From positions 706-64,705 of the forward strand of contig JAMOQH010000157.1 in the NCBI GenBank assembly GCA_027064085.1: a stretch of DNA of 64,000 nt, given 5' to 3'. A model generated the notes under the pieces. The model saw only the letters and a list, made by a program, of their open reading frames with translations. It searched no databases and had not been told where the DNA came from. Positions 887 through 46,959 of this stretch are shown piece by piece. The position numbers were made by a program, and so were the translations under genes. The stretch is from a bacterium. GTDB lineage: Bacteria; UBP6; JAFGXH01. How positions within the stretch are numbered: the first letter of the stretch is position 1; every line of letters starts with the position of its first letter.

Positions 887-895
887 AGAGGAAGT

Positions 896-1747
896 ATGTA
901 CACATTATTAAATGGAAAAGAGTTAAGTAAAAAAATTAAAAGAGAAATAGCAAGCGAAGTTGCCAGTATAATTGACTCAGGAAAACGCTCTCCTTCACTT
1001 GCTGTTGTTTTAGTTGGAGAAGATGAAGCCTCTAAAATTTATGTTAGAAATAAAATTAAAGCAACTAAAGCAACTGGAATTATTAGTCATGAATATAAAT
1101 TACCAGAATCAATAACAGAAAAAGAATTAATAGAAACCATTAGATTTTTAAATAATGACGATGAAGTTGATGGAATATTAGTACAACTCCCCCTCCCTAA
1201 ACAAATAAGTGAAGAAAAAATTATAAATTTAATTGCTCCAGAAAAAGATGTTGATGGTTTTACTCCTAAAAATACAGGAAGATTTTATATAGGCTTAAAC
1301 TCTTTAAAACCATGTACCCCAAGTGGAATAATGGAGTTTTTTAAAGAATATAATATTAAAATAGAGGGAAAATCTGCTGTAGTGCTAGGTAGGTCTAATA
1401 TAGTAGGTAAACCTATAGCAAATATGCTTTTAGAAAAGAATGCAACTGTTACTATCTGTCATTCTAAAACTCAAAACCTTAAAAAGATAGTTAAAAACAG
1501 CGATATCGTTGTTTCTGCAATAGGTAAAGCTGAATTTATTAAAGAAGATTGGATAAAAAAAGGAGCTGTTGTTATTGATGTTGGCATAAATTATAACGAA
1601 GCAAAACAATTAGTTGGAGATGTTGATTTTAAAAATGTTGCAGATAAATGTTCTTTTATAACTCCCGTACCAAAGGGAGTTGGACCTATGACTATAGCAA
1701 TGCTTATGAAAAACTGTTTAACTGCATATAAAATGAGAACAAAATAA
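896..1747 (+). CDS. folD: bifunctional methylenetetrahydrofolate dehydrogenase/cyclohydrolase FolD
   Basis: 283 aa. FolD signature stretches read: 'LAVVLVGEDEASKIYVRNK', 'DGILVQLPLP', 'KPCTPSGIMEF', 'AVVLGRSNIVGKP'. It lies 9 bp downstream of the peptidase gene. Confidence 0.9.
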   Translation: MYTLLNGKELSKKIKREIASEVASIIDSGKRSPSLAVVLVGEDEASKIYVRNKIKATKATGIISHEYKLPESITEKELIETIRFLNNDDEVDGILVQLPLPKQISEEKIINLIAPEKDVDGFTPKNTGRFYIGLNSLKPCTPSGIMEFFKEYNIKIEGKSAVVLGRSNIVGKPIANMLLEKNATVTICHSKTQNLKKIVKNSDIVVSAIGKAEFIKEDWIKKGAVVIDVGINYNEAKQLVGDVDFKNVADKCSFITPVPKGVGPMTIAMLMKNCLTAYKMRTK

Positions 1748-1751
1748 CAAG

Positions 1752-4700
1752 TTAATCAAGCTTTATCATTAAACCATCAATAATTTTATTAAAATAATCC
1801 AATGCTTGTTCTAAATTACTAAACTGACTAGTAATTGTTATATCATTTTTTTGACCAAATTTAATATTTGGATATTTATTTAAAAAAGGCATTAAACTAA
1901 CCAAGTCTAGTAAATCCGGGTCGTCTAAAATCATATAAATTATAGCTCTACTAATAGTTATTTTAGATATTTTATATTTCATTGCTCTGATTTTAATTTT
2001 TACTAAATTTAAAAAGTTAATAAGTTCCTCGGGGAACACTCCAAATCTATCTCTTAATTCTTCAGTAATTTCATCAACTTCTGTATCATCTATTGAGTTT
2101 GAAAGAGATTTATAAAATGATAACCTCGTAAATTCATCTTCAATATAAGAAGCCGGAATAAGAGCAGAAAAGGCGGTATTTAATTCTGTTTTGAAATCAA
2201 CAGAAGACTTCTTATCCCCCTTTAGTTCGGCAAGAGCTTCTTTTAGAAAATTCATATAAGTTTCATAGCCAACTTCATCAACATGTCCTTTTTGAGCAAA
2301 ACCGAGTAGAGTTCCTGCTCCTCTAATTTCCATATCTTGTAAAGCTATTTGAAAACCACTTCCCAAATCAGTATATCTTGAAATAACAGATAACCTTCTT
2401 TCGGCAATAGATGTAATTTTTCCTTTTTTAGGTAACTGTAATATGCAATAACCTTGTCTTTCTGCTCTTCCTACTCTACCCCTAAGCTGATATAAAGATG
2501 CTAATCCAAAATTATCAGCTCTATCAATTATCATAGTATTTGCATTTGGTATATCAATCCCTGATTCAATAATATTTGTAGAAAGTAATAAATCAAATTT
2601 TCCATCATAAAACTCCATCATTAACTTTTCTAGTTTTGATTTAGCTAGCTCTGCATGAGCAATTGCAAGTTTGATATTAGGAAAAAGCTCTAATAAGTAA
2701 TCTGCCTCTTGATAAATTGTAGCTATCCTATTGTGAATATAAAAGACTTGCCCCCCTCTATCTAGTTCAAAGGAAATTGCTTCTTTTAATTTTTTAGGAT
2801 TTTTACGAACAACTATAGTTTTTACTGATTTTCTGTTTTTTGGTGGGGTATTTATTATACTTAAATCCCTAATTCCAGAAAGGGAGAAGTTTAAAGTTCT
2901 AGGAATAGGAGTTGCAGTCATAGCGAGAGTATCTATATTTAGTTTTAATTCTCTTAATTTTTCCTTATCTTTTACTCCAAATTTATGCTCTTCATCTATA
3001 ATTAATAAGCCTAGCGATTTGAAATTAACCATTTTAGCTAAAATAGCCTGAGTACCAATTAAAATATCTATTTTTCCTCTTTTTAACTGTTCAAAAATGA
3101 TTTTTTTATCTTTAACAGACTTAAAACTACTAATAAAATTTATTTCTATAGGAAAATTAGAAAACCTTTTTTTAAATGTCAAATAATGCTGAAACGACAA
3201 AACTGTTGTTGGAGCAAGTATTGCAACTTGCTTGTTATCTGCAACAGCCTTAAATGCTGCTCTCATCGCAACTTCAGTTTTTCCAAATCCAACATCTCCA
3301 CAAACAAGCCTATCCATAGGCTTAATATTTTCCATGTCTCCCATAATTTCATTAATTGTTTTTTCTTGATCTACAGTTAAAATATATGGAAACTCTGAAA
3401 CAAAAGCATCATATAACTCATCATTTTGAGTAAAAGCATAACCTCTTGCAGTCATTCTAGAAGCATATAGTTGAATTAGTTCTTTTGCTATTTTTTCTAT
3501 AGACTTTTTAATTCTTCGTTTTCTATTTTCCCAAGCCTTAGACCTAAAACTATCTAACTTAGTAGTAGTTTCACTAGAGCTATGTTTATAGAGTAATGAC
3601 ATATTATAAACAGGAAGAAATAATTTATCACCCTTTGCGTAATCAATTTCTAAAAAATCAGTAATATTTCCATTTATTGTTTTTGAAGAAATGCCTATAT
3701 ATTTCCCTATACCATAATTAGTATGAACAACAAAATCCCCTTTATTTAAATCAGAAAATGAAGAGATTATATTTTTCATTCTTTTAGTTGATGCTGGAGG
3801 CGAATAAACCCCTAAAATCAAATAATCAGATAAAAATATTTCTTCATTTGTCTGAAAAGCATCTTTTAATAACCCTGTTTTCCAAATAATTCCGCTACTT
3901 AACAAATCAAGTTGATTTAATATTTTTTCTATTTTTTGTTTTCTTTCTTCAACAACATAAAAAATAATAACTTTTTTATCCTGTTTTAAATTATCTTCAA
4001 TTAATTTTGATAACCTAAAATATGTTTTAGGTTCTTGTAAGATTATTCTATAGGGTGAAGTTATTTCTGAATTTAATACTATAGTTTGCTTAGTTCCATC
4101 TTGAATAGGAGATATTTGAAATATTTTTTTACTGTTTTTACTATTATTATCTAAAATTGTTTTTAATGTTTTTAAATCATAATATATTTCACTTTTATTA
4201 ACTTTGTATATTTCATCTATTTCCTGAGCAATATTATTTGTATCGTATAAAAAAATATTTTTATACTTCTTTTTAATTAAGGTAAAAACTGTTGTTGGAT
4301 CTTTATAAAAAAATGGAGCATACTCTATTAATTCTTGACTAATATTTTTTTCTTCAATAAGTGATAATAATTTATCTAATTTATCATAAGAAATTATTTC
4401 ATTTTCAAATTCACTATTTATATATTTTTTAAAATTTTCAATATTGTTATCAGTAAAATCAAAGCGAATTGAAGAAATCAGTTTAAAAGACTTAATTTCT
4501 TCTATTGTTGTTTGAAAATCTGCATCAAAAAACCTGATTGATTCTATTTCATCTCCAAAGAGCTCAATTCTTATTGGATTTTGATAATAAGGAACAAAAA
4601 CATCTATTATTCCACCCTTTATTTGAAAACACCCCTTCTCCTCTACGGGAACCTCATATCTATAACCTAAATCCAATAATTTTCTTCTAAAATTATCTAC

Positions 4701-5063
4701 ATTGATTTCTTGTTCTATTTTAATTTCATCATAATCATTTTTGTTTATTTCTGGTATTTTTTTAAAAAGAGCTTCTAGAGTAATTATTGGTATTGAATTT
4801 TCAACAAATATTTTATAAAGACTAGAAGTTTCCTCTATAAATTTTTCGTAATCAAAAAATTGATTATTTTCTAATATATTTTTATATAAAATATTGCTTT
4901 TTTTCTTTATTTTTAAAAATTCAGCAAATAAATCAATTTCAGTTTTTACTTTTTCAGCTACTTTATTACTAGGAACAATAATCGCAAACTTTTTAATCTC
5001 TTTTATATTTTTTAAAAGATAATAAACAGGAGCAGGATTTAATATTGATTGTATATTTCTCAT
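1752..5063 (-). CDS. mfd: transcription-repair coupling factor Mfd
   Basis: 1103 aa. Superfamily-2 helicase core with Walker A 'CGDVGFGKTEVAMRAAF' and 'LLIIDEEHKFGV', plus 'LAMTATPIPRTL'. A CarD/TRCF-type RNAP-interacting region ('FVVHTNYGIGKY') precedes the helicase, and a TRCF C-terminal domain follows. Confidence 0.9.
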   Translation of the reverse strand: MRNIQSILNPAPVYYLLKNIKEIKKFAIIVPSNKVAEKVKTEIDLFAEFLKIKKKSNILYKNILENNQFFDYEKFIEETSSLYKIFVENSIPIITLEALFKKIPEINKNDYDEIKIEQEINVDNFRRKLLDLGYRYEVPVEEKGCFQIKGGIIDVFVPYYQNPIRIELFGDEIESIRFFDADFQTTIEEIKSFKLISSIRFDFTDNNIENFKKYINSEFENEIISYDKLDKLLSLIEEKNISQELIEYAPFFYKDPTTVFTLIKKKYKNIFLYDTNNIAQEIDEIYKVNKSEIYYDLKTLKTILDNNSKNSKKIFQISPIQDGTKQTIVLNSEITSPYRIILQEPKTYFRLSKLIEDNLKQDKKVIIFYVVEERKQKIEKILNQLDLLSSGIIWKTGLLKDAFQTNEEIFLSDYLILGVYSPPASTKRMKNIISSFSDLNKGDFVVHTNYGIGKYIGISSKTINGNITDFLEIDYAKGDKLFLPVYNMSLLYKHSSSETTTKLDSFRSKAWENRKRRIKKSIEKIAKELIQLYASRMTARGYAFTQNDELYDAFVSEFPYILTVDQEKTINEIMGDMENIKPMDRLVCGDVGFGKTEVAMRAAFKAVADNKQVAILAPTTVLSFQHYLTFKKRFSNFPIEINFISSFKSVKDKKIIFEQLKRGKIDILIGTQAILAKMVNFKSLGLLIIDEEHKFGVKDKEKLRELKLNIDTLAMTATPIPRTLNFSLSGIRDLSIINTPPKNRKSVKTIVVRKNPKKLKEAISFELDRGGQVFYIHNRIATIYQEADYLLELFPNIKLAIAHAELAKSKLEKLMMEFYDGKFDLLLSTNIIESGIDIPNANTMIIDRADNFGLASLYQLRGRVGRAERQGYCILQLPKKGKITSIAERRLSVISRYTDLGSGFQIALQDMEIRGAGTLLGFAQKGHVDEVGYETYMNFLKEALAELKGDKKSSVDFKTELNTAFSALIPASYIEDEFTRLSFYKSLSNSIDDTEVDEITEELRDRFGVFPEELINFLNLVKIKIRAMKYKISKITISRAIIYMILDDPDLLDLVSLMPFLNKYPNIKFGQKNDITITSQFSNLEQALDYFNKIIDGLMIKLD

Positions 5064-5097: not shown

Positions 5098-6084
5098 CTA
5101 TTCTTTTTTAATTTTATTTATTTCTCCTTTTGATAATCCTGTTAATTCCATAATTTTATTAATATCTGTTTTAGTATTTATTAATAATTTCACTAAATTT
5201 ACAATTTGTTTTTTAGCTTTTTCCTCTCTCTCAAGAGCTTTTTCTTTTTCTTTTTGAGCTTTTTCTATCTTTTCTTTAGCTTCTTCAAGACCTTTTTGTA
5301 TCCCTTTGTTTTCAGCTGTGCTTAGTACAGCATACCAATCTCGGTATTCCTTTAAACTTGCTAGATATTTGTTTTGGTCTTTTTTATCCATATTTACAAA
5401 TTCTGCTTTATTAAAAGCATCTTTTATCACTTTATCATCATTAAATATCTTGGGAATTTCATTTAGAGAATCTAAATTATTTAAAAAATAAAACCATTTA
5501 TCCAAATATGTATTTAATTCATTTTCTCTTTTGGTAAATTTAGGCATCTCTACAAATACATAATTTAATTTATCGTAAAATACATCATTATTCTGGTCTT
5601 TTAACTTCACATAATGAAGATAATCTTTATTATTGTTTTCTTTAAACTCAAAATCAAGTATTCCTATACAATAAACAGCACTTAGTTTATAGTCCCAACT
5701 CACCTTTCTTGGACTTCCATCTCTTGTTAATGCAGTTCCATCGTAATATAAGCCTTTTAAACCTTGCTCCTGTATTAAAATACTTGAATAATATACCATT
5801 CTATCTTTAAAATAGGTTTGCTCTGCTCTTTGCAATTCTACAAGTATGTGATTATTGTCTTCGTCAAGGCAGTAAATATCAAAAACGGTATTCCTGTCTC
5901 TTTTGCTTAAACCCAGCTTTTCTAAGTTTTTAAACTCTAAATCAACTATTTTAGCCCTATTTTCAAGCTCCAAAAAAGCATTGATAAAAGATATAAGCTG
6001 TGGTTTACTTCCTTCTTCACCAAATAGTTTTTTAAAACCATAATCTGTGAATGGATTTATATATTTTGATGTTAAACACATCAT
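5098..6084 (-). CDS. Rpn-family recombination-promoting nuclease / PD-(D/E)XK putative transposase
   Basis: The N-terminus 'YINPFTDYGFKKLFGEE' is the hallmark of the Rpn/YhgA-like PD-(D/E)XK 'putative transposase' family. A 'DIYCLDEDNNHILVELQ' nuclease-core-like stretch follows. The tail is a Lys/Glu-rich coiled coil. The gene sits 34 bp upstream of mfd on the same strand. Confidence 0.75.
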   Translation of the reverse strand: MMCLTSKYINPFTDYGFKKLFGEEGSKPQLISFINAFLELENRAKIVDLEFKNLEKLGLSKRDRNTVFDIYCLDEDNNHILVELQRAEQTYFKDRMVYYSSILIQEQGLKGLYYDGTALTRDGSPRKVSWDYKLSAVYCIGILDFEFKENNNKDYLHYVKLKDQNNDVFYDKLNYVFVEMPKFTKRENELNTYLDKWFYFLNNLDSLNEIPKIFNDDKVIKDAFNKAEFVNMDKKDQNKYLASLKEYRDWYAVLSTAENKGIQKGLEEAKEKIEKAQKEKEKALEREEKAKKQIVNLVKLLINTKTDINKIMELTGLSKGEINKIKKE

Positions 6085-6745
6085 TCCTCCTCTGGCTCTT
6101 TATGCAATTGCCCTAGTATATTATAACTTATATTTGGGATTATGCAAGATTTTTTATGTGATTTTATTGATGTATTAAATACTTATCAACAACAAAATAG
6201 TAAAGAGGAAAAGAACTACTTAAAACGAGAGTAATTTATCTCTTTTTAAAGAGATATTAGTAGTGTCAGTGGAAGAATACTGTAATTTGCACTATTTTAT
6301 TAGTTGTAACAATAGGTTAGAAAATATATTAAGTTTTATAAAAAAAATATTGAGTCAACTATAAATAATGATTTTATTTTTTAACCCATATTTCCTTTTT
6401 TTATTAAGGAGCATTGTTTTTGTAGTAATAAATGCTGTATTTAGTGGAAGAATTGCAAATAACTCTCTTGCAACTCTTAAAGCAACTCCACAGACATAAT
6501 CTTGATATAATTCATAAAATTTAGCTTTAGTCATATTTTTTTCAGATACCTTTCCACTTTTATTTATAAAAGTTAGCTTATTTTTGTGAAGAAAACACTT
6601 AAAGGTGTTTGATGAACCTTAATAATATTTAAATTTATACTAACGGAATAATAAAACGGTAGAAAATAAACACTTTTCTATAAATTTACTTAAAAAATAA
6701 ATATTAATGTGTTATAATGTTGCTCATTAAAGTTATGGAGGTTTT

Positions 6746-9622
6746 ATGATTTGTCCTAATTGTGGCCATAAAGAAGATTATGATTTTTATATTTGTCCGA
6801 AATGCCAATACGATATTGATGTGGATATCAATAAAGATGACCCCGACTTTGATGATGAACTGGCAAGTGTTTTAGATGAACAAACCAATTATCAAATAGA
6901 TGCTAATGAATTAATGTTTGAGGAAGATACAAGTATCCGATATGATAATAATGTTATAGAAGAACTGGTTGATGATTTAATTGAAGAAAATAAGTCTCAA
7001 CTTGAAGTTAATCAGGTTTTCAACTTACATATTAATGAAAAAGATCTTATTGGTCGAGATGATGAACTAAATAAACTGTTATTATATTTTAAAAAAATAA
7101 GAGAAAATAATTCAGTAGCCTCCTTAACTGTAGTGAGCGAACATGGCCTTGGAAAAACTGATTTAATTTCATTATTTTTAAGAAAAATAAAATCTTCTGA
7201 CTCCACAATTATGATTATAGAAGCAACAGGATTAGGTAACACTAAAAATGAAGATTACTCTATTTTTAAATCAATACTTAAAAAACTAACCCAAATATCT
7301 GATTCTGATATTAGTGATATAAAAAAACAAAAACTAAAAGTTTTTTTAAAAGAATCAACTCCATTTCACCTATACCATGAATTAAAGGTTGTTTTTAGCC
7401 GATTATTAGAAATGAAAACAGAAAAAGATATTGAAGAAATGGATATAATGTCCTATGATAGACTTTTAAAAAGAAGCTTTAGGCAAATATTTAACTATTA
7501 CACATCTCAAAATATTTTTTTAATTTTAGCAATTAAAGATTTTCATAATATTGATATTAGATCTATAGAAATGATTGACTACTTTATGTCTTTACCAAAC
7601 TACAAGAATTTACTCTTTTTATTGACATCAGAATTAGAAGATAAAGTTCAAAGATTTTTAAAAGGAGAACATTCAAAAAGATTTTTTCTAAAGTTATTAC
7701 CCTTGACACAAGAAGATTCTGTAAAATTAGTTAAGCACATATTAAAAGATATTAAAAACTTAGAATTAGAAACTATAGAATTAATTGTAGCAAATACCAA
7801 AGGAACACCACTGCATATAAAAGAAAGCATTAGTTATTTAGTAAATTCAGGTGCAATTATTCAAAAAAACGGAAAATATACTGGAATTAATAAATTAGTA
7901 CTAAAAAGAATTCAGATTCCAATGACTTTTGAAGAAACAATCAGAGCTAAAATAGATAGATTATCTAAATTTGACTACTCTATTTTACAATTAGCATCAA
8001 TATCAGGAGAAATATTTAAATATAGCTATATAAAGTTACTTATAAATATTGATAACCTCGTTGTAAAAGAAGAAAATAAAATAAAATTGTGGAATACTAA
8101 AAATTTAGAAAATAAATTAAGTAAAACATTTGAAAATTTAATTAAAGAAGATGTATTAAAAAAACAAAAAGGGACTCTAAATGATCAAGAATACTTATTT
8201 AGTAATACAGTAGAACAAAAACTCATATATTCTACAATTCCGCCAAGATTAAAAAAAATATATCATGGATATTTAGCTCAATATTTAGAGTCTAAACTTG
8301 ATAAAAAAATGGAAAAAAACTTAGAACAATTATCGCTACAATATAAATTAGCATCAAATACATATCAAGCATCTAAATATTATTTTGTTGCAGCTAAAAA
8401 AGCTGAAGAAAGATATGCAAACCGAAGAGCCATAAAGTATAACTTAGAAGCATTAAACCTTCTTCCTGCTGAAAATGTACTAAACAGGCTTGAGGTATTA
8501 CATAACCTAGGCTCTTTATATACGCTTATTGGTAAAACAGAGGATTCTATAGTAACTTTTGAAGAAATGGTTCAACTTTCACAAATAATACTAAACAACA
8601 ATAAACTTGGAGCTGCATATAATAAGATAGGAAGAATCTATAGAGATATTGGTTCTCATAAAAAATCATCAAACTACCTAACCCTTGCTTACAATAGCTT
8701 TAGGATAGCAAAAGATAGAAGAGGTATTGCATCAACACTTGATGACTTAGGTCGCTTATATTGGCAACAAGGTAAATTTGAAGAGTCTCTAAAAAACTAT
8801 ATGAAATCTCTTGATATAAGAAAAAAACTAAACATGCCTAAGTCAATAGCATTATCATTAAACAATATTGGCTTACTATATTATTCTCAAGGCTTTGTTG
8901 ATGAAGCAGAGGAATATTTATTTGAAGCCTATAAACTAAGAAAACAAATTAAGGACAAACAAGGTGAAATGTCTTCTTTAAATAATCTTGCAATATTAAC
9001 AGATAATAAAGGAGACGACATTGAAGCAAGGGCATTATGGCTTAAATCTTTAACAATTGCAGAAGAAATAGGTGACATAAAATACCAAGCAACTTGTATG
9101 AATAATTTAGGCGGGCTGTTTATTGAAAGCAATAAGTACAATAAGGCACAAGACTATCTGAAAAATGCTTTAGAGATAGCTCTGGAATCCTCTAACAAGA
9201 GAATACTAGGATACATTTACCTTAATTTGGGTGAACTAAACTTAAAGCAACATAAAACATCTAATGCTAAAAAATATCTTGAGAGAGCATTTGAGCTTTC
9301 AGAAGAATCTGGAGATAAACAAGTCGCAGGAAGAGTTTATTGTTTATTTGGAGACATTGAGTCCGCTACACTATTTAATGATAATGGTGGTGATGGAGTT
9401 GCTCCAGCTGAAGATTATTACCTAAGAAGCTTAGATTTACTAAGAAAGGTATCTGAACCTTTAATGGCTGCAACAAATATCTCATATGCAGAATACTTAT
9501 TAAGCAAAGGCAAAAAAGGCAAAGCTAAAAAATTATTAAATCAAGCAGAAAATATATATCAAAATTACAATATGCAACTTAAATTATCTAAAATAAGAAG
9601 ATTAAAAAAAGATATACTATAG
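6746..9622 (+). CDS. zinc-ribbon + AAA_16 (STAND-like) P-loop NTPase + TPR-repeat signalling protein
   Basis: 958 aa. N-terminal double Cys pair 'CPNCGH...CPKCQY' (zinc ribbon), then an acidic linker. The AAA_16-type pattern 'LIGRDDELNKLLLYFKKIRENNSVASLTVVSEHGLGKTDLISLF' matches 'GRExEL...GExGxGKT'. The C-terminal ~400 aa read as tandem TPR-like repeats (e.g. 'LDDLGRLYWQQGKFEESLKNYMKSLDI', 'LNNIGLLYYSQGFVDEAEEYLFEAYKL'). A GGAGG-like RBS lies upstream. Confidence 0.6.
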   Translation: MICPNCGHKEDYDFYICPKCQYDIDVDINKDDPDFDDELASVLDEQTNYQIDANELMFEEDTSIRYDNNVIEELVDDLIEENKSQLEVNQVFNLHINEKDLIGRDDELNKLLLYFKKIRENNSVASLTVVSEHGLGKTDLISLFLRKIKSSDSTIMIIEATGLGNTKNEDYSIFKSILKKLTQISDSDISDIKKQKLKVFLKESTPFHLYHELKVVFSRLLEMKTEKDIEEMDIMSYDRLLKRSFRQIFNYYTSQNIFLILAIKDFHNIDIRSIEMIDYFMSLPNYKNLLFLLTSELEDKVQRFLKGEHSKRFFLKLLPLTQEDSVKLVKHILKDIKNLELETIELIVANTKGTPLHIKESISYLVNSGAIIQKNGKYTGINKLVLKRIQIPMTFEETIRAKIDRLSKFDYSILQLASISGEIFKYSYIKLLINIDNLVVKEENKIKLWNTKNLENKLSKTFENLIKEDVLKKQKGTLNDQEYLFSNTVEQKLIYSTIPPRLKKIYHGYLAQYLESKLDKKMEKNLEQLSLQYKLASNTYQASKYYFVAAKKAEERYANRRAIKYNLEALNLLPAENVLNRLEVLHNLGSLYTLIGKTEDSIVTFEEMVQLSQIILNNNKLGAAYNKIGRIYRDIGSHKKSSNYLTLAYNSFRIAKDRRGIASTLDDLGRLYWQQGKFEESLKNYMKSLDIRKKLNMPKSIALSLNNIGLLYYSQGFVDEAEEYLFEAYKLRKQIKDKQGEMSSLNNLAILTDNKGDDIEARALWLKSLTIAEEIGDIKYQATCMNNLGGLFIESNKYNKAQDYLKNALEIALESSNKRILGYIYLNLGELNLKQHKTSNAKKYLERAFELSEESGDKQVAGRVYCLFGDIESATLFNDNGGDGVAPAEDYYLRSLDLLRKVSEPLMAATNISYAEYLLSKGKKGKAKKLLNQAENIYQNYNMQLKLSKIRRLKKDIL

Positions 9623-9632
9623 GAGTAAATAA

Positions 9633-10370
9633 ATGCAAATATTAATAGGGACAGATAATCCAACATTTAGTCTAAAAAAATACACAGAACAATTTAATTT
9701 TTTAGAATATGGGGATACGTATAAAGCTTTTGTAAAAAAGAAAACTCTTTTAAATATAAGAAAAAAAGCTGGAGACAATTTTTCCTTTTCATTAAAAGCT
9801 CCATTATTTATTGCAGAAGACCAAGAAACAATAAAAAGATTTTCATCAAATGTTCCACTGCTAAACAAAGAAAGCTTAAGCAACTATGGATTATTCAAAA
9901 AAACGCAAGAAAATCAAAAACTTACAGAAATACTTATACAGGAAATTGAAAATTTAGATGCAGATGCTACAATTTTTTATACTTCTAACAAATTTCAACC
10001 TACCAAAGAAAACATTAAAAATATAAATCAATACTTTAAAGATTTAGGCTCATATCTAAAAAAAGATGACAGGGACCTATTTTGGACCCCTTTAGGTTTT
10101 TGGTCTCCAGATATCATTATGGAAGCATTAAAAGATACATCGGTTATTCCAGCTTATGATCCGCTCATAGATGAAATAGAAATAAACTCTCTTGTTAATT
10201 ATTTTGTAATGAGAGGACTAGGAAGATACTCAAAAGGATACTCTGATTCTGCTCTTGAAAACCTAGCCGAAATTATTTTCAATAAAGGCGTTGATACCTA
10301 TGTTGTTTTTCAAGGAACATATCAAGTTTCAAATGCAAAAAGATTCAACGAAATTATAAAATATTGGTAA
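9633..10370 (+). CDS. DUF72 (YecE-like) family protein
   Basis: 245 aa. 'ILIGTDNPTF...YTEQFNFLEYGDTYKAF...NFSFSLKAPLFI' parallels the YecE pattern 'IGLPQW...FNCVEGNTTLYALP...FRFCFKFPATI'. It starts 10 bp after the NTPase gene. Confidence 0.55.
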   Translation: MQILIGTDNPTFSLKKYTEQFNFLEYGDTYKAFVKKKTLLNIRKKAGDNFSFSLKAPLFIAEDQETIKRFSSNVPLLNKESLSNYGLFKKTQENQKLTEILIQEIENLDADATIFYTSNKFQPTKENIKNINQYFKDLGSYLKKDDRDLFWTPLGFWSPDIIMEALKDTSVIPAYDPLIDEIEINSLVNYFVMRGLGRYSKGYSDSALENLAEIIFNKGVDTYVVFQGTYQVSNAKRFNEIIKYW

Positions 10371-29707: not shown

Positions 29708-30829
29708 TTAAAAATAAGGACTTGCCTGAACAGGCTCTAATTCTACATTTGTATTACTTGATGTATCTGTTTTTTTAAAAGAAATGTCCATAGGATCACT
29801 CTTTTCTTCAATATAATCATTTTCAACAATTAATTCTTCCACTGTTGGAGTGATATTATTATTATCATCTCCGTATGTAATAATATCATTGTTACAACTT
29901 TTCATTGCAATCTCTGCTTGCTTAACTTCATTAAATGAGGAATAAACCTTAGCTAGTAATTGTTTTGCTTTACTTAAATTAGATTTCGCAATCGCTTCAT
30001 CTATTGCAACACCATTATCTTCAGCCCTTCTAACATACCCTTTTATTGTCATTACATTACCATTAATACAATCTAATTTAGGTATATTCTTTTCTTTTCT
30101 AGTTTTCTTTAATACTGTATAAGCATTAGATAAAATAGACCTCATCTTTCCAATATATTTATTCGCAGAACTTGTTACTTCTCCTTCATTAAAAGACTTA
30201 AATTTATTTGTTTTGCTTGAATTTTTATTTTCTATAGTTTCAAATTTTGAATTAAAACTTTTTATTTGAGCCATATTTATATTTGTAACAATAGGTAAAT
30301 TTTCTCCGCTTACTTCTAATACTTTATTAGAAGTAAGCTTTAGCTTATTAAATTTATCAAGAACTGATTTAACTGCAATAATTCCTTCTGTAAGAAATAT
30401 TTTTACCTTTTGGGAGTGGTTAGTTAAAACAAAGGAAGTTCCTTTAATTTCTAGTGTAATATATCCACTAGTTATTTCAAAAAGGTTATTTCCAAACTTT
30501 CTTTTAACATTAACTTTAATGTCTCCAGAAATTAATTTTAAAAGTGCAAACCTTTTACTTTTGCTAGCATCGACTACAAATTTTTTAATTGATAATTTTG
30601 TTTTTTTAGCTAATGATATTTCTGTTTCATCATTAAATTTTATTTTTATTTTACCTTTTTTAGTGTCAATTAAATCACTACTATAAATAGAATCACCTTT
30701 ATTTAGTATTTCGTCTCTGCTTGTGGAGCGCACTCTATAAACTTTTCCTTCAACAGATCTGATAACTCCAACTTGCTGTTCAAGCCCTAAAAGACTAAAT
30801 GATAATAGAAAAAATATTATATATTTCAT
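29708..30829 (-). CDS. secreted FecR-domain-like protein
   Basis: Signal peptide present. 'VGVIRSVEGKVYRV...GDSIYSSDLIDTKKGKIKIKFNDETEISLAKKTKLSI...SGDIKVNV...ITSGYITLEIKGTSFVL...VKIFLTEGIIAV' follows the FecR beta-sandwich pattern. Confidence 0.5.
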   Translation of the reverse strand: MKYIIFFLLSFSLLGLEQQVGVIRSVEGKVYRVRSTSRDEILNKGDSIYSSDLIDTKKGKIKIKFNDETEISLAKKTKLSIKKFVVDASKSKRFALLKLISGDIKVNVKRKFGNNLFEITSGYITLEIKGTSFVLTNHSQKVKIFLTEGIIAVKSVLDKFNKLKLTSNKVLEVSGENLPIVTNINMAQIKSFNSKFETIENKNSSKTNKFKSFNEGEVTSSANKYIGKMRSILSNAYTVLKKTRKEKNIPKLDCINGNVMTIKGYVRRAEDNGVAIDEAIAKSNLSKAKQLLAKVYSSFNEVKQAEIAMKSCNNDIITYGDDNNNITPTVEELIVENDYIEEKSDPMDISFKKTDTSSNTNVELEPVQASPYF

Positions 30830-30899: not shown

Positions 30900-31667
30900 T
30901 TATATATTCTTAATTTTTTCTAAATCATCTTCTGTAAAATTTAAAAATAAGATAGATTTTTCTTTATTCCATAAAAATAATGAATTGTTATCTTCTATTG
31001 TAAATAAAATGTATTTATTTGTTTCTTCTGTAACTTTTTGTTTTTTAATAAAAACTTTTAATTTATTAATAGAGTCTTGATTTATTTTCAATGGCTCTAT
31101 CGTTGATATAATAATTCCTTTATATTGTGCTTCCCTTTTAATATATTGCTTAAAAAAAGGAAAAGAATTATCATCATTTATAAAAAGTTTTTGATAATTG
31201 GAAATAGAATCTATTTTATTTTTAGGAAGTTTTATTTTAGTATTTGCTACAATTTTTAATTTATTTAAATCACATAATGGCAAACTTACTATGTAAATAT
31301 ACTCATTAGACAAAATTACAACTTTACCTGCTACTTGATAAGCGAATTCAGATTTATCAAATTTGCCGTAACTGCTATCTCTTGCAATTGTAAATTCAGA
31401 ATAAGCATAAAGAGCTGTCTTATATTTATAGCGATAAATCTCTAGATTTTTATCATATTTTGCATTAATAAATTCTGTCATTGCATTATTTTCATTATAT
31501 TTTTGATATAAATTTAACTTTTTGGAGTTGTTTTCAATAATTTCTGATGTTTTATTATATTTATTAATTGTTTTAGGGAATACTCCTTGTATTTTTGCTT
31601 TTTTGTTATTATTACAAGAATATACAAGAACAATTAATAACCCAAATAAAAAAAATCTAAACTTCAT
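30900..31667 (-). CDS. lipoprotein, hypothetical
   Basis: Signal peptide plus lipobox 'LVYSCNNNKK'. 255 aa. Confidence 0.4.
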   Translation of the reverse strand: MKFRFFLFGLLIVLVYSCNNNKKAKIQGVFPKTINKYNKTSEIIENNSKKLNLYQKYNENNAMTEFINAKYDKNLEIYRYKYKTALYAYSEFTIARDSSYGKFDKSEFAYQVAGKVVILSNEYIYIVSLPLCDLNKLKIVANTKIKLPKNKIDSISNYQKLFINDDNSFPFFKQYIKREAQYKGIIISTIEPLKINQDSINKLKVFIKKQKVTEETNKYILFTIEDNNSLFLWNKEKSILFLNFTEDDLEKIKNI

Positions 31668-31691: not shown

Positions 31692-33329
31692 TTAAGGGCG
31701 AGGTCTGCAATATTTACTAGGATATGGATAAGAAGTATTTTCATAACAATAAAAATTACTACTATAGCAATCACTATCCGTTTCGCAAGTATCCATCCAA
31801 TACATCATCCAAGAATCATTTACATTCATACCTACACACATAACTTCATTAGGATAAGTTGTATTATCAAGAGCTCCTTGCTGAGGACAATCACTTGCCA
31901 CACATATATTGTAATGTTCAAAAGCCATACATGTTCCATTTTGATAATCACAATCAAAATCTGAATTACACTCTATACCAACTGGTTTCAATGAGCTATC
32001 ATATTTACAGTAACCTAAATCATCCCAGTTATTAACAGAAATACACCTGTTGTATTCCTCACATTTAGAATTATTAATATTACCTTCACTTGGCTTGCAA
32101 GCAGGCTCACACCTTTTGGTCGTTTCTGAATTATTATCGTGATCAACACAAATACTACCTTGTAAACAAAGATTATTTTTATTACACAATCTTCCATTTT
32201 CTAAAGTACCTGTTACAGCACAAGCATTATAACTAATTTCATCAAAAGGATAACATGATTTTCCCACTTCTGAACAAGAATTATCAGAGAACATATCACA
32301 GTTTATGTCTTGAGTAACACATAAACCACTATTATTGTCACAAATTTGATAATCTTTACACTCACTATCACTTAAACATTTAGGCCTACATAATTTATCA
32401 TTATTACAAGTAAAATCACTTCTGCAATCTAAAATATTATTACAAGCTTGTAAACAGTATTTACCACTTAAATAATCACCACATTTATAATCATTACAAA
32501 CACTATCATCTGTACATCTTTTAGTACAATAACCATTTTCTATACCGTTTAAAAGACAAATCATATCACTAGGACACTGACTTTGTGTATTACACATAGA
32601 CCCCATAGTAGGAGGCGGTGTACATGCTCCATCTATACACAGATAACCATCTATATCACATATACCAGTAGGATGCTCTGCACTGCATTTGTCAAGTTCA
32701 ACAATACATAATTCACCGGTTTCATCTTTTTTAAATCCTTGTTTACAATCCCATTCACATTTTGTTGTTTCTTCCCAGGCATCATTTACCCAGTTAATTT
32801 CAAACTGGGTAACAATGATTTCTCCATTTTCAGGAATAGTTATATGCCTATCACATTGAACAAGTTTTGTATTTTCCTTACAATTATCATTTTCACAATG
32901 TTGTGTATCTGTGCATTCTATATTACCACATAACTCAAGGCCATCTTTAACACAATTTAAACCAACAGGATGATAGCCACTTGTACAAATACAAATAGCT
33001 TTATCAAAATCATTTAAATCACATGTTCCATTACCACTACAATCAACAGAATTACATTTAGCTTCCTTTAGAGTTTTACAAACTCCATCATAGCATTCCT
33101 TATCTTTTTCTCTGCAATAGCCAAATTTATTTGTTTCAGAACATTCCAAATCGACTTTTTCACATTTATTTTTAACACATTCATACCCTTCAAGACACTT
33201 AACAGAGTCATCACAATAAGCCTTACTTGCTGTTGAAGCAGCACATGATGATAATAATAAAAAGATAAATATTATTATATAGTGGAAATTATTCCTGATT
33301 ATATTACCTAAATTCATAAAAATACCCAA
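31692..33329 (-). CDS. secreted cysteine-rich repeat protein (EGF-like / myxobacterial-type Cys-rich repeats)
   Basis: 545 aa with a signal peptide. Many Cys residues (on the order of 70 by eye) fall in recurring C-x-C-x(n)-C-x-G-x-C units, e.g. 'CEKVDLECSETNKFGYCREKDKECYDGVCK', 'CNSVDCSGNGTCDLNDFDKAICICTSGYHPVGLNC'. Confidence 0.6.
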   Translation of the reverse strand: MGIFMNLGNIIRNNFHYIIIFIFLLLSSCAASTASKAYCDDSVKCLEGYECVKNKCEKVDLECSETNKFGYCREKDKECYDGVCKTLKEAKCNSVDCSGNGTCDLNDFDKAICICTSGYHPVGLNCVKDGLELCGNIECTDTQHCENDNCKENTKLVQCDRHITIPENGEIIVTQFEINWVNDAWEETTKCEWDCKQGFKKDETGELCIVELDKCSAEHPTGICDIDGYLCIDGACTPPPTMGSMCNTQSQCPSDMICLLNGIENGYCTKRCTDDSVCNDYKCGDYLSGKYCLQACNNILDCRSDFTCNNDKLCRPKCLSDSECKDYQICDNNSGLCVTQDINCDMFSDNSCSEVGKSCYPFDEISYNACAVTGTLENGRLCNKNNLCLQGSICVDHDNNSETTKRCEPACKPSEGNINNSKCEEYNRCISVNNWDDLGYCKYDSSLKPVGIECNSDFDCDYQNGTCMAFEHYNICVASDCPQQGALDNTTYPNEVMCVGMNVNDSWMMYWMDTCETDSDCYSSNFYCYENTSYPYPSKYCRPRP

Positions 33330-33393
33330 AAAACAATAAGTTATTATACTACGAATTATACTTTATTTCAAGATAGAGTTTTAAATTATTTAT

Positions 33394-34603: not shown

Positions 34604-35896
34604 TTAAAACATATACTTTAATTCAAAAAAGAATCTACTAAATTCTTCAAGCCGCCCAAATCTTGTACCACTAGCTCCTCTAAAATTTATTACACCTATG
34701 TAAGATTTTAATTGGCTTGATATATTCCAAGAAGCAAACAATAAATTCATCATATTTAAATCTAATAAATCAGCAGAACCTAAAAATTGAAAACTTAACA
34801 TTGGAGTAAATGAATATCTTATTCTGTAAATAGTGCTATATGTATTTATTCTTGATACAAAAATATCATCTCCAAGCATAGGACTCAAACTATCATACTC
34901 TAACTGCCTGTTGTAATTTAATAATCTTGTGTAAGATATTTGTAAAGAAATAGATAAACCATTAGAAAATTCTTTTTCAAAGCCAAATGCTGTTTTTATA
35001 TTTCTATTTTTAATACTAACATCTTTACCAATTTCATCTTCTGTATGATGATATGCTAATTCAAAAAGCCAAACTGTATCAAATAATATTGTTTCAAAAT
35101 CTAAACCCATTACTTGTAGCTTTTTGTATTCTGGAGTAAATGTTGCCACATTCATATCAACAACAACAGAAAAATTTCTATCATATCCTTTAAAATAATT
35201 TAATGAAAAATCAGTATCTTCTCCTACCTCAAATGTAATTTTAGCACCAATTTCAGTATTGGTAATATTTCTTGATGAATGTTTTGCTATTGTTTTAGTT
35301 AGTGGCCCCATTTGATTTGGTAATTCCATTTTATTTATAGGAGCAATTGGAAGAAATACTGTTTCTAATGTTGCAATATCAAAAAGATTAAAATCTAATT
35401 TTAAGGCATCAACAGCAACTCTATAGTTCTCTTTTTCTGCACTCATAGTCATAAAATTCCATGGAGAAATAACATCAAGTGCCCCACCCCATTCAAATTT
35501 TCCCCAAAAAATATACTGACGCCCTAATTTTAAATCAAGGAACCCTCCTATATCTCTAATCCCTATATAACCTTCTTTAAAATAAGTTGTCATGCCATCT
35601 GAATTCAAAGAAGTTGGTTCTTGTTCTAAAATTTTAAAATCATAATCAAATTCTAATATTGTATTAAAATAAATATCTTTAGTTACATCGTTATTAAACC
35701 TTAATTGTAAAGTTAAACCACCTCTATCATATATAAATTTATCTTTTTTTAATTTTTGATTACTCCAATTTATGTCAGACATAGCTCCACTAATATCAGT
35801 ATAATTGTAGTCCTTGATATAACCTGATATTAAATTATTTTCTGCAAATAAATTAACAGTAAATATAAAAAATGCCAAAATAGGTATTATTCTCAT
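34604..35896 (-). CDS. putative outer-membrane beta-barrel protein, hypothetical
   Basis: Signal peptide 'ILAFFIFTVNLFA'. Alternating hydrophobic strands. C-terminal aromatic residue ('...ELKYMF'). 1-bp gap to the flavoprotein gene. Confidence 0.35.
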   Translation of the reverse strand: MRIIPILAFFIFTVNLFAENNLISGYIKDYNYTDISGAMSDINWSNQKLKKDKFIYDRGGLTLQLRFNNDVTKDIYFNTILEFDYDFKILEQEPTSLNSDGMTTYFKEGYIGIRDIGGFLDLKLGRQYIFWGKFEWGGALDVISPWNFMTMSAEKENYRVAVDALKLDFNLFDIATLETVFLPIAPINKMELPNQMGPLTKTIAKHSSRNITNTEIGAKITFEVGEDTDFSLNYFKGYDRNFSVVVDMNVATFTPEYKKLQVMGLDFETILFDTVWLFELAYHHTEDEIGKDVSIKNRNIKTAFGFEKEFSNGLSISLQISYTRLLNYNRQLEYDSLSPMLGDDIFVSRINTYSTIYRIRYSFTPMLSFQFLGSADLLDLNMMNLLFASWNISSQLKSYIGVINFRGASGTRFGRLEEFSRFFFELKYMF

Positions 35897-35908
35897 GATT
35901 TCCTTATT

Positions 35909-36643
35909 TTATAAAGTTTTTAAATATCTTGTTGTAAATATCTTTGAAGAGATTTTCTTTATTTTTATATTTGTTAATATAATTTCAGCCTTAACGCCCT
36001 CATCAAGGTCACTTGTTTCCATTTTAGTAATAAAATTAACATTATTTATCTTTTTTGATTCTAAAACAGTTTGTATTCTTCTTTTTTTGCCATCTTTACC
36101 AAAAAATTCTGTTTTAACAATAATGTTTTTTTTCTTGTTAATATTCAATATAAGTTTTTTATAACCTGTAATTTCTATGGTTTTATCAGATTTAGCAATA
36201 GCTTCAACAGTAACAATACTATTTTCTTCTTTTAATAATTTGTAATTCCATAATTCAACTCTTGGTTTTAACAAATAAAGAGACAAAAAATCTCTTAACA
36301 TAAAATTATCACCATTAGCAGGAACCTTTTTAACTCTTCTTAGTGCTCTTAAATAAATATACCTTTTATCTTTTAGGTTTTTATTACAATGAGCTAAAAA
36401 AGCCATCCCTTTCATGTGAGAAGGAAAAGTAAATATTGCTAAAATTTTTTGTCCATCTTTAGTATCAATAGCTTTGACTGTCATTTTTTTTATTAGGCTT
36501 TCCTTATTTCCTCTTTTTAAATCTAATTGCATATTTGCAGAAAATCCTGTCCAAGACATATTTTTTAAAATATTTTCTATATTTGATTCATAAGAAAATA
36601 ATTGGAGATTAAACATAAAAACAAATAAAATCAAAAACTTCAT
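35909..36643 (-). CDS. LolA-like outer-membrane lipoprotein-sorting family protein
   Basis: 244 aa with a signal peptide. The overall pattern resembles the 'outer membrane lipoprotein-sorting protein' (LolA-fold) family: 'KKMTVKAIDTKDGQKILAIFTFPSHMKGMAFL...RYIYLRALRRVKKV'. Confidence 0.45.
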   Translation of the reverse strand: MKFLILFVFMFNLQLFSYESNIENILKNMSWTGFSANMQLDLKRGNKESLIKKMTVKAIDTKDGQKILAIFTFPSHMKGMAFLAHCNKNLKDKRYIYLRALRRVKKVPANGDNFMLRDFLSLYLLKPRVELWNYKLLKEENSIVTVEAIAKSDKTIEITGYKKLILNINKKKNIIVKTEFFGKDGKKRRIQTVLESKKINNVNFITKMETSDLDEGVKAEIILTNIKIKKISSKIFTTRYLKTL

Positions 36644-36651
36644 AAAATCTC

Positions 36652-37011
36652 CTATTCAAATAATAATTTTTCAACCAAATAAAAATCACTTAAAAAAGCG
36701 ACTATCATAAATATATTCGACCACAAAATTCTATATTTATTCTTTTTTAAAATAAAATACCAAACATTTAGTATAAATGGATACATTAAATTGAGATATT
36801 TAGGCTCATTTAACTTTATGGAAAGAACTGTAAAAATAGTAATTACTAAAAATGACAACACCGAACCCAAAACAGAATATTTTACAGTAGTTTTTATATT
36901 TTTACTTGAAAGAAATAAAACAATAATAGCAACTATTAATAAAACTCCAGTTGTAAGAAGTGCAGGCTTTAAAACAAATTCTTCTATAAGTTTTAGTATA
37001 CTTTTTAACAT
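36652..37011 (-). CDS. small integral membrane protein, hypothetical
   Basis: 119 aa with three predicted TM helices. Gaps are 8 bp to the LolA-like gene and 3 bp to the Cys-rich lipoprotein gene. Confidence 0.35.
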   Translation of the reverse strand: MLKSILKLIEEFVLKPALLTTGVLLIVAIIVLFLSSKNIKTTVKYSVLGSVLSFLVITIFTVLSIKLNEPKYLNLMYPFILNVWYFILKKNKYRILWSNIFMIVAFLSDFYLVEKLLFE

Positions 37012-37014
37012 TTA

Positions 37015-38016
37015 TTAATCAATATCTAGTATTTCAACATTTTCGGTAATATTACTTTCGGGTAAAACTACTGAAAATTTAACTTGAGGGTCAGTATCTT
37101 CTGCCTTAAAACCAGTTCCATCAACATCACCATAAAGCCAAATATAAAAATCACCATTATAATCAGTTGCAAGTTTAAATGTTCCTTCTTTTGTTGGGTC
37201 TAAAGTAAAGGTATATGGAAAAGTAATAGGTCCGTCTATAAAATGAGCATATTTAGGCATTCCCCCATAAGTATCATTATCATAACCAGCAAGACCTATT
37301 CTTTTTATTTCTTTTGAACCTGTGTAATTAACGGTAATATTCATTTCATAAGATTTTGTAGTTGCTTCACATGTTAATTGGTCTTCACTACAAATAGTAC
37401 CTGCCTCACAAGTTCCACAAGTATTACCACCACAACCATCATCGCCACAAACTTTATCTGTACAATCAGGCACACAATTGTCTTCACAAACACCTTCATT
37501 ACATACTTTATTATCTTCACATTTTCCATTTGGATGTTCTTTAGAACATAAATCTTCATTAGTTGTTTGGTCTTTTAATTCAACATTAAATGTTTCATCT
37601 TTAGTTGGAGTAAAATCAGCTCCTAGATAAACCGGGTCTATACTATGAACTTCTAGTTTTCCGTCTGTTGTATCAACATCACCATAAATAACAACTAAAT
37701 ATTTTTTCCCTTTAAATCCTTCTAGTTTAATTTCAACTTCTTTAGAAAAATCAACTCCACCTGTTGTAAGGGCTTCAGTAGGAAAAGAAAGCGCACTTGC
37801 AGGAGAGCCAGCAGGCATTTGATTTTGTACACTTGTTTCATAATCAAAAAAAGCTGCTCTTACTTGTTTAATTTCAGAACTTCCTTTATAGTCTATTTTA
37901 TAAGTTAAGGTATAGCTTTCTTTATCTGTATTTTTTACAATTTTCTCATCTCCACATGCAGAAAACACAAACATTGAGATTAAAGAAAGAGCTAGAATTT
38001 GGTAAATTCTTTTCAT
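37015..38016 (-). CDS. cysteine-rich lipoprotein (EGF-like Cys cluster)
   Basis: Signal peptide plus lipobox 'VFSACGDEK'. Central cluster 'CSKEHPNGKCEDNKVCNEGVCEDNCVPDCTDKVCGDDGCGGNTCGTCEAGTICSEDQLTCE'. Confidence 0.5.
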   Translation of the reverse strand: MKRIYQILALSLISMFVFSACGDEKIVKNTDKESYTLTYKIDYKGSSEIKQVRAAFFDYETSVQNQMPAGSPASALSFPTEALTTGGVDFSKEVEIKLEGFKGKKYLVVIYGDVDTTDGKLEVHSIDPVYLGADFTPTKDETFNVELKDQTTNEDLCSKEHPNGKCEDNKVCNEGVCEDNCVPDCTDKVCGDDGCGGNTCGTCEAGTICSEDQLTCEATTKSYEMNITVNYTGSKEIKRIGLAGYDNDTYGGMPKYAHFIDGPITFPYTFTLDPTKEGTFKLATDYNGDFYIWLYGDVDGTGFKAEDTDPQVKFSVVLPESNITENVEILDID

Positions 38017-46620: not shown

Positions 46621-46959
46621 TTACTTCTTTTCTTTCTTTTGGCATTCATCAAAAATTTTAGCTTTCATCAAACAATCAATTTTTTCACTGCTATAAAACA
46701 AACTACATTCTGTTTCTAGATTTTTAACTTTTTTAAATTTTTCTGATATTTTTTTACATTTTCTAGATTTTTCTTGTTGATGACATTTTTTAGTTTCTTT
46801 ATCAGTTTTAGCATTTATCAGGCAGGTTATTAAATCTCCGGAGTCTCCTTCTCCTATTAAGCAACCTCCATCTTTTTTATCAGGTATTACTGTATCGCAA
46901 TCTGCACTGTAAATTGTGATACTTAATAATATTAAAATCAAAAGTGATAAAAACTTCAT
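46621..46959 (-). CDS. small secreted 8-Cys protein, hypothetical
   Basis: 112 aa. Signal peptide. 8 Cys. Lys-rich. Confidence 0.4.
   Translation of the reverse strand: MKFLSLLILILLSITIYSADCDTVIPDKKDGGCLIGEGDSGDLITCLINAKTDKETKKCHQQEKSRKCKKISEKFKKVKNLETECSLFYSSEKIDCLMKAKIFDECQKKEKK

Follow-up and report, generated by a model that had tools for sequence, protein, structure and literature searches.

A predicted cysteine-rich modular lipoprotein of mosaic architecture encoded in a contig of the bacterial lineage UBP6

The contig JAMOQH010000157.1 from a bacterium of the GTDB lineage UBP6, JAFGXH01 (GenBank assembly GCA_027064085.1) was analysed over the 64,000 nucleotides between positions 706 and 64,705, hereafter called the window. 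The open reading frame (ORF) 31692-33329, on the minus strand, encodes 65 cysteines (Cys), corresponding to 11.9% of its 545-aa form. Cys accounts for only 0.47% on average in the 52 remaining ORFs of the window, so that the enrichment is roughly 25-fold. Bacteria are usually regarded as poor in multi-disulfide extracellular modules, and the question raised by this locus is what such a protein is and what it may do for the cell. A first-pass annotation had estimated about 70 Cys by eye; the number was too high but the extreme density was real.

The protein represents a new architecture among the Cys-rich modular lipoproteins of bacteria, a broad class that is poorly curated. We propose that it works as a disulfide-stapled rod or scaffold lipoprotein on the envelope, together with two envelope proteins encoded downstream, and we give this reading a probability of about 0.5.

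Cysteine framework, conservation and export signal

The spacing of the Cys is regular, far beyond chance. The recurring unit was C-x(4,5)-C-x(4,6)-C-x(3,13)-C, which was present in 10 non-overlapping copies; 20,000 shuffled sequences had 0.74 copies on average and never more than 6. The ten periodic modules started at residues 39, 92, 134, 246, 272, 296, 318, 382, 454 and 515 and held 40 of the 64 Cys of the mature chain. The periodicity announced by the first-pass annotation was thus found, but with a unit other than its C-x-C...C-x-G-x-C module: in a motif count the protein contained C-x-C once, C-x-x-G-x-C twice, and C-x-G-x-C, C-x-x-C and C-C not at all. The module map (M1-M10) is given in Table 1, together with the position of the other features of the locus.

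These counts bear on a possible metal-binding or redox-buffering role, in which the Cys would be thiolate ligands in the manner of metallothionein or zinc ribbons, or a redox sink. The very high Cys content agrees with such a role, as does the presence elsewhere in the window of a DUF364/DUF4213 gene ("heavy-metal chelation"). However, the C-x-x-C and C-C motifs are missing, His is scarce (7 residues), and the spacing fits disulfide modules, including an epidermal growth factor (EGF) signature. The lipoprotein signal described below would in addition bring the protein to an oxidising compartment, and we consider a metal-binding role very unlikely.

The six full-length genes, found in six genomes and sharing 45-81% identity, each encode exactly 65 Cys. 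All of the Cys columns (65/65) were invariant, compared with 24% of the non-Cys columns; a further sequence, P0004, showed one Cys-to-Arg difference. The pairwise ratio of nonsynonymous to synonymous substitution rates (dN/dS) was about 0.09-0.18, an approximate value as the synonymous sites were near saturation. No hypervariable segment was visible in the three pairs compared. The region M8-M9 (residues 341-449) was the least constrained and had the highest dN/dS in two of these three pairs. Because the Cys framework is invariant in six genomes and dN/dS is low, the gene is real and under purifying selection. An artefactual ORF was ruled out by the conservation in six genomes, and a coat protein subject to antigenic variation by the low dN/dS throughout. 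The family is small. Among 5.8 billion protein clusters searched, only six relatives were found, all metagenomic, the whole family amounts to approximately eight members, all metagenome-derived, and a scan of metagenome contigs found it in just three JGI samples. Source samples include ENA ERZ272626xx and JGI 3300026521, 3300026544 and 3300019752, the last of which probably came from a marine or saline site according to a hint in the literature.

The ATG at position 33317, four codons past the TTG, is the start used in the public gene calls (P0001, 541 aa) and is probably the true start. It lies approximately 25 nt beyond a sigma-70-like promoter match. The number of promoter-like sites in the AT-rich upstream region was not significantly above that of shuffled sequences, and this site is a consensus match alone. 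A rule of the PS51257 type was applied to the N-terminus ([LIVMFWSTAG]2-[LIVMFYSTAGCQ]-[AGS]-C after a hydrophobic signal peptide, with the Cys at 15-35). All of the full-length orthologues have this pattern, as does the window protein, where the Cys is residue 25 in 541-aa numbering. The additional K or R within the first 7 residues was present in five of seven sequences; the window protein has an R at position 8. Judged from its sequence, the protein is a bacterial lipoprotein, predicted to be lipid-anchored and not freely secreted. The export signal expected of the "secreted protein" of the first-pass annotation is there, but it is a lipoprotein signal with a lipobox Cys at position 29. In Escherichia coli, the +2 sorting rule directs lipoproteins with Ala at +2 to the outer membrane. 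Applied to the present protein, which has an Ala at +2, this rule points to outer-membrane sorting.

Downstream of the lipidated Cys, 64 Cys remain, an even number which leaves room for 32 disulfides. It could be imagined that they form an intermolecular lattice hardening the envelope or the wall of a cyst or spore, by analogy with OmcA/OmcB or with SP75. The chlamydial OmcA and OmcB are Cys-rich envelope proteins of a diderm bacterium, and one of them is a lipoprotein. The present protein is likewise a Cys-rich lipoprotein, with a size similar to that of OmcB, the analogues CREMP and SP75 are matrix components, and two more Cys-rich exported proteins are encoded in the window. Nevertheless, the Cys fraction of the chlamydial proteins is much lower and their cross-links are intermolecular, whereas the framework observed here looks intramodular: the even number of mature Cys and the invariant, self-contained modules suggest pairing within modules. 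In addition, no Pfam match to the chlamydial Cys-rich outer-membrane protein families was found on the protein. We regard a lattice of this kind as quite improbable.

Table 1. Position of the Cys-rich lipoprotein gene, its predicted signals and modules, and the two genes downstream (window coordinates; residues in 545-aa numbering unless stated)
Feature	Position	Strand	Description
Cys-rich lipoprotein ORF, whole	31692..33329	-	545 aa from TTG 33329; stop codon 31692-31694; uninterrupted
Promoter match, sigma-70-like	33343..33371	-	TTGAAA-17-TATAAT; 11/12 consensus positions; within the 64-bp upstream gap
Predicted lipoprotein signal peptide and lipobox	33243..33317	-	MNLGNIIRNNFHYIIIFIFLLLSS/C; ...FLLLSS/C; Cys29; Ala at +2
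M1, 4-Cys hairpin	33156..33221	-	residues 37-58; C-x5-C-x5-C-x4-C, the Dumpy DPY spacing; AlphaFold2 beta-hairpin, P0001 residues 45-48/51-54
M2, 4-Cys module	33072..33149	-	residues 61-86; CS-x-x-N/P-x-G-x-C...C-x-x-G-x-C
M3, sole full EGF-like module, six Cys	32946..33062	-	residues 90-128; C92...C126
M4, 4-Cys hairpin	32874..32936	-	residues 132-152; C-x4-C-x5-C-x4-C; hairpin in model
M5, 4-Cys module	32700..32870	-	residues 154-210; ...P.N...VEI.W...W..P..C.W.C..G[YF]......C
M6, second M2-type 4-Cys copy	32616..32693	-	residues 213-238; only element common to ORF 37015-38016
M7, ~100-aa 16-Cys domain	32310..32606	-	residues 242-340; four C-x5-C-x4/5-C-xn-C-x3 sub-units
M8-M9, 12-Cys region	31983..32309	-	residues 341-449; most variable part of the family; low pLDDT in whole-protein model
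M10, 10-Cys C-terminal region	31695..31982	-	residues 450-545; NEV.C...YWMD.C..D.DC...NF.CY conserved
255-aa lipoprotein, unclassified family	30900..31667	-	24-bp gap; GGAG ribosome-binding site; directly downstream of the Cys-rich gene
373-aa FecR-domain protein, plain signal peptide	29708..30829	-	Pfam FecR 46.5 bits; 70 bp past the 255-aa gene

Module relationships and structure models

The protein had been described as built almost entirely of EGF-like repeats. It is indeed modular and M3 is EGF-like, but only this one module is complete. The Pfam EGF model PF00008 gave 16.9 bits on residues 92-120, below its gathering threshold (GA) of 21.5, and a match to DUF7107 was also sub-threshold. 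The EGF_1-type signature C-x-C-x2-[GP]-[FYW]-x4-8-C matched once, at CICTSGYHPVGLNC (residues 113-126, in the form C-x-C-x2-G-Y-x6-C), and the six Cys of M3 (residues 92-126) were spaced x4-x5-x9-x1-x10. Arrays detected with a hidden Markov model (HMM) of M3 in the proteins P0008 and P0007 passed the Pfam thresholds of EGF (47.4 bits for PF00008 in P0008), EGF_2 and Pvs28 EGF at the same positions. M3 would thus belong to the EGF superfamily by transitivity, since its homologues in these two proteins pass the thresholds. Single EGF modules superposed at 2.0-2.4 Å. When the ten delimited regions were compared with hhalign, no other module was related to M3, and several full EGF modules in tandem were not found. 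The only demonstrable repeats were M2 and M6 (probability 95.5%, E 1.6e-8).

As compared with EGF-like domains (PF00008), the protein shares the six-Cys framework and the signature in M3, and ten of its modules have the spacing of the first two EGF disulfides. It differs by having a single full module, no calcium-binding D-x-D/N-E-C motif, no third disulfide in the other modules and a Pfam score under threshold, and by being bacterial and lipid-anchored. The 4-Cys hairpins have a common framework, but a shared ancestry cannot be proven at such a length.

The module of the CREMP proteins has the pattern C-x4-C-x5-C-x8-C, forming a loop over a small beta-hairpin with Cys1-3 and Cys2-4 disulfides, and corresponds to an EGF domain minus its third disulfide (PMC3068167; bioRxiv 10.1101/2025.09.16.676614). 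The DPY module of Drosophila Dumpy has the same architecture with the spacing C-x5-C-x5-C-x4-C (bioRxiv 10.1101/2025.09.16.676614), and the Dictyostelium spore coat protein SP75 shows a similar four-Cys spacing, C-x4-C-x5-C-x6-10-C (PMC3068167; bioRxiv 10.1101/2025.09.16.676614). All three, CREMP, Dumpy and SP75, are structural proteins of extended shape found in extracellular matrices (PMC3068167; bioRxiv 10.1101/2025.09.16.676614). The bacterial protein resembles Dumpy DPY (PF21164, PDB 1OIG), CREMP (PDB 9pgb) and SP75 by its serial four-Cys modules of approximately 20-25 residues (C-x4/5-C-x5-C-xn-C), by one predicted beta-hairpin per module and by a Cys content in the range of 10-17%. The eukaryotic proteins are long arrays of near-identical tandem modules, whereas here several module types are present as single divergent copies within 541 aa. 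M1 has exactly the DPY spacing (residues 39-56), and M4 and the sub-units of M7 are EGF/CREMP-like in spacing, a resemblance at the level of the framework. The Dumpy_DPY model PF21164 had no match on the whole protein at E <= 1; on the last sub-unit of M7 it reached 13.3 bits, below the GA of 27. The match of the M7 profile to CREMP 9pgb was marginal (E 0.0064, 19.9 bits) and involved columns of biased composition.

No NCBIfam model matched the protein at E <= 1, including TIGR02232 (myxo_disulf_rpt), which the first-pass annotation had proposed as a check. Like the present modules, TIGR02232/DUF4215 is a bacterial exported repeat of the disulfide type, but its Cys pattern is different. No relevant NCBIfam model was found at E <= 0.1 on ten proteins with related module arrays. 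Individual copies of M7 gave only sub-threshold Pfam matches (DUF7107, Dickkopf_N, Dumpy_DPY and WAP), as did those of M5 (EGF_MSP1_1, Antistasin and cEGF). Neither M5 nor M7 had a Pfam, NCBIfam or PDB relative above threshold, and the M5 profile matched PDB sequences at chance level only, on Sushi domains of complement factor H.

An AlphaFold2 model built on the six-sequence alignment had a mean predicted local distance difference test (pLDDT) score of 65.5 and a predicted template modelling (pTM) score of 0.36, residues 60-150 and 190-340 being better (approximately 75-87). It displayed one short beta-hairpin per 4-Cys unit, no helices past the signal peptide and no globular core. Residues 337-545, modelled with the proteins P0010 and P0034 in the alignment, consisted of hairpins throughout (pLDDT 68.9, pTM 0.50). 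Structure prediction, another check suggested initially, gave a series of hairpins; a Foldseek search of the PDB returned nothing at E <= 1e-3 and no fold relative was found for the C-terminal half. The weak top matches, all non-significant, were multi-EGF or small-disulfide proteins such as NELL1/NELL2, fibrillin, Notch and Pfs25.

These best matches, although insignificant, are eukaryotic EGF proteins, as would be expected if a eukaryotic EGF-repeat gene had been recently acquired for molecular mimicry in a host-associated lifestyle. The Plasmodium proteins Pfs25/28 and MSP1-19 are also small lipid-tethered surface proteins made of a few EGF-type modules. They are eukaryotic and carry a glycosylphosphatidylinositol anchor, where a bacterial N-acyl-diacylglyceryl Cys is predicted in the present protein, and no sequence relationship was detectable. 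The GC content is approximately 26% throughout the window and approximately 28% in the region of the gene, which is compositionally not foreign. The protein has a bacterial lipobox and hundreds of module relatives in bacterial lipoproteins, six genomes show a stable chromosomal synteny, and the family profile matched no PDB sequence at E <= 1. A recent eukaryotic origin is hardly credible.

The relatives were found with the family profile, which gave 425 matches at E <= 1e-3 among 1.84 billion representative proteins, module by module only. HMMs of the individual regions were then run on 155 proteins, namely the family of six and the best 149 of the distant matches. Tandem arrays of M3 were present in 112 of the 155 proteins, and arrays of M5, with up to 11 copies, in 56 (P0009, P0013, P0014, P0016, P0033, P0125 and others). 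The M5 consensus, K.V.C...P.N......VEI.W....W..P..C.W.C..GY......C, covers about 55 aa, and M5 is best described as a predicted, uncurated domain family. M7 formed tandem units of approximately 100 aa in 13 proteins, including P0072, P0089, P0096, P0097, P0133, P0144 and P0145, which are from GC-rich proteomes and some of which have a reprolysin-like protease region; its consensus is G..C...GGYC[TS]..C...C[LV]..C...CR.G[YF].C...C.P.C...G.C. Outside the family, M8 and M10 were common only to P0010 and P0034.

A lipobox-like N-terminus was observed in 102 of the 149 distant matches. The modules began at a median of approximately 35 residues past the lipidated Cys, and in 121 of the 149 proteins they were located in the N-terminal half. 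The C-terminal domains were different from protein to protein (FGE-sulfatase, PPC, Receptor-L/LRR, reprolysin-like, bacterial TSP3), and the proteomes of origin ranged from very AT-rich to very GC-rich. Such a distribution would fit the Myxococcota/Bdellovibrionota-type secretomes put forward by the first-pass annotation, without proving them. Because they lie near the lipid anchor, in the N-terminal half, and are combined with varied C-terminal domains, M3 and M5 may be generic membrane-proximal stalk modules. The protein as a whole is, on these matches, a mosaic with N-terminal modules shared with hundreds of lipoproteins and a C-terminal part specific to the family.

Among the distant relatives, P0010 (MBN2694135.1, from the metagenome-assembled genome GCA_020718465.1) resembled the protein over the lipobox, the first hairpin, the CS..NP.G.C modules and the M8 and M10 regions (E 9e-46). 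It contains 12.9% Cys and lies on a contig with approximately 27% GC. It differs by NPNPC-type cEGF-like repeats in the middle and by an extra M8-like unit at the C-terminus, and its gene has another neighbourhood, without the 255-aa partner and without the FecR gene.

Two other ORFs of the window had been linked to this protein by the first-pass annotation. ORF 37015-38016 (minus strand), presented as a second, smaller example, encodes a lipoprotein with 13 Cys, 12 of which are in a 60-aa linker. One 4-Cys hairpin of the M2/M6 type is indeed shared (BLASTP against the Cys-rich protein, E 0.008) and is accompanied in the linker by a CVPDCTDKVCGDDGCGGNTCGTC motif. The remainder of the protein is different, consisting of two duplicated domains of approximately 115 aa (31% identity, E 5e-9) that flank the linker. 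This ORF had no Pfam or NCBIfam match and was kept at the same position in the sister genomes L011 and L012. ORF 46621-46959 (minus strand) encodes a plain signal peptide followed by a Lys-rich mature chain of approximately 93 aa. The 8 Cys announced for this mini-protein were confirmed, but it had no family match and was rejected as a relative of the Cys-rich protein (hhalign probability 0.5%). About 20 ORFs of the window have no Cys at all, with which the three exported Cys-rich proteins contrast all the more.

Genomic neighbourhood and lineage

The Cys-rich gene and the 255-aa lipoprotein gene are probably co-transcribed. The order of the trio formed with the FecR-domain gene was kept in the window, in L003/L004, in L011 and in L012 (NCBI metagenome-assembled genome GCA_054075425.1); in L005 and L008 it was kept up to the contig ends. 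The 255-aa partner is equally narrow in distribution, with 8 clusters. The gene upstream of the Cys-rich gene varies, encoding a HI0933-like flavoprotein, a methyl-accepting chemotaxis protein (MCP), or a protein with sigma-70 regions 2 and 4 and tetratricopeptide repeats (TPR). The FecR-domain protein has a long tail rich in Lys, Ser and Asn and a conserved C-terminus (...EPV[QE]ASPYF), and is weakly similar to Leptospira Lsa33/LipL45; its NCBIfam Lsa33 score was weak, 40.5 bits against a cutoff of 420.

A FecR domain two genes downstream raises the possibility, by analogy with FecA-FecR-FecI, that the Cys-rich protein and its partner lipoprotein are the ligand-sensing front end of a signalling system. 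In L003, a gene for a 450-aa fusion of sigma-70 regions 2 and 4 with TPR (positions 732-2084) lies directly upstream of the Cys-rich gene, and an MCP gene is upstream in two other genomes. However, the FecR-domain protein carries neither an anti-sigma domain nor a transmembrane helix but instead a signal peptide that is cleavable, and no TonB-dependent transducer is linked at the locus. A conserved linkage to a sigma factor was also dropped, as neither the 64-kb window nor the other loci contain a homologue of the sigma-70/TPR gene. A Fec-type system was discarded on these grounds, the sigma-like gene being adjacent in one genome only, and a sensing role in a broader sense appears improbable.

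Upstream of the locus, a block on the minus strand (34604-37011) was kept in L001, L011 and L012 and may be a module for lipoprotein or lipid handling; its products are a 119-aa membrane protein, a TP_0789/LolA-like protein and a DUF1302-like outer-membrane protein. The window also encodes Mfd, FolD, AroA, GlgB, RpoN, an MCP and many lipoproteins. Because of this gene content, which includes the LolA-like and DUF1302-like proteins, the organism is predicted to be a free-living, motile diderm. Mfd (1752-5063, minus strand) had metagenome relatives at 87%, 80% and 60% identity, followed by proteins of named organisms, from mixed phyla, at approximately 47% or less. These values suggest a deep-branching uncultured lineage.

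Around mfd, the window and the sister genome L009 (Mfd 87% identical) are different. L009 has a gene for a thioredoxin-fold lipoprotein of the Redoxin/TlpA-like type (9366-9929) between a TPR-ATPase gene and mfd. At this place the window has a PD-(D/E)XK (PDDEXK_2) transposase-like gene (5098-6084, minus strand) and a segment of approximately 660 bp (6085-6745) without a long ORF, and a homologue of the redoxin was found nowhere in the 64 kb. Downstream of mfd, at 13320-21800 in L009, genes for WYL, RhuM, a Type ISP/MmeI-like restriction-modification enzyme and DUF1016/YhcG probably form a defence island. The corresponding segment of the window (65-1747) contains folD and a gene for an S41 peptidase, indicating that the region is variable between close relatives.

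A putative envelope rod and its significance

We propose the following organisation for the protein. It would be a lipoprotein of a diderm, lipidated at Cys29 and tethered by its N-terminus in the outer membrane. The mature chain of approximately 516 residues would be a string of about 14 small, independently folded beta-hairpin modules, in which the 64 remaining Cys, oxidised in the periplasm, would form approximately 32 intramodule disulfides. The outcome would be an extended, rigid rod resistant to proteases and denaturation. In this model, M1-M6 would be a generic stalk composed of two-disulfide hairpins, one EGF-like module and one W..C.W.C module, whereas M7-M10 would be the working end, specific to the family. 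With the 255-aa lipoprotein and the secreted FecR-domain protein, the rod may build a structural or scaffolding assembly at the envelope or surface.

Several points weigh against this proposal. The structural role comes from an analogy with Dumpy, CREMP and SP75, homology not being established (E 0.0064 for CREMP; 13.3 bits against 27 for Dumpy_DPY). The lipoprotein status and the sorting are deduced from sequence patterns and from a rule of E. coli that is maybe invalid in this lineage. With pLDDT values of 65-69, the AlphaFold2 models reach only moderate confidence, and the conserved gene order indicates linkage, not a physical complex. Finally, the window contains neither a thioredoxin-fold gene nor a Dsb gene.

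It is possible, if rather unlikely, that the protein is an adhesin, an option already named in the first-pass annotation and one that overlaps with the rod. M8-M10 would in this case be the head of the rod and bind to a surface, a polymer, prey or host cells, the stalk just providing the reach. Related stalk modules bear binding or enzymatic heads in other lipoproteins, the neighbouring FecR-domain protein is weakly similar to a Leptospira adhesin (Lsa33), and diatom adhesive trail proteins contain Cys-rich repeats. The variability of M8-M9 in two of the three pairs is as expected of a ligand-facing part. Nevertheless, Pfam and NCBIfam revealed no adhesin, lectin or Ig-like domain in the protein, its C-terminal half is without a fold relative, and dN/dS is low everywhere, without sign of an arms race.

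Under the rod proposal, approximately 32 disulfides are predicted in one protein, within a proteome that otherwise nearly avoids Cys (0.47%). In a bolder version, which we think unlikely, the trio would be an undescribed envelope or surface apparatus specific to a deep-branching, uncultured lineage of approximately 26-30% GC, its rod of about 30 disulfides would be a bacterial counterpart of eukaryotic structural filaments of the Dumpy/CREMP type, and M5, M7 and M8-M10 would be new disulfide-rich folds widely used by bacteria as stalks of lipoproteins. Among the modules are at least three widespread uncurated families: a bacterial EGF-like type, the W..C.W.C type and the 16-Cys type of approximately 100 aa. 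Small and robust two-disulfide modules may serve as scaffolds in protein engineering, and defining these families would allow a better annotation of many "hypothetical lipoproteins".

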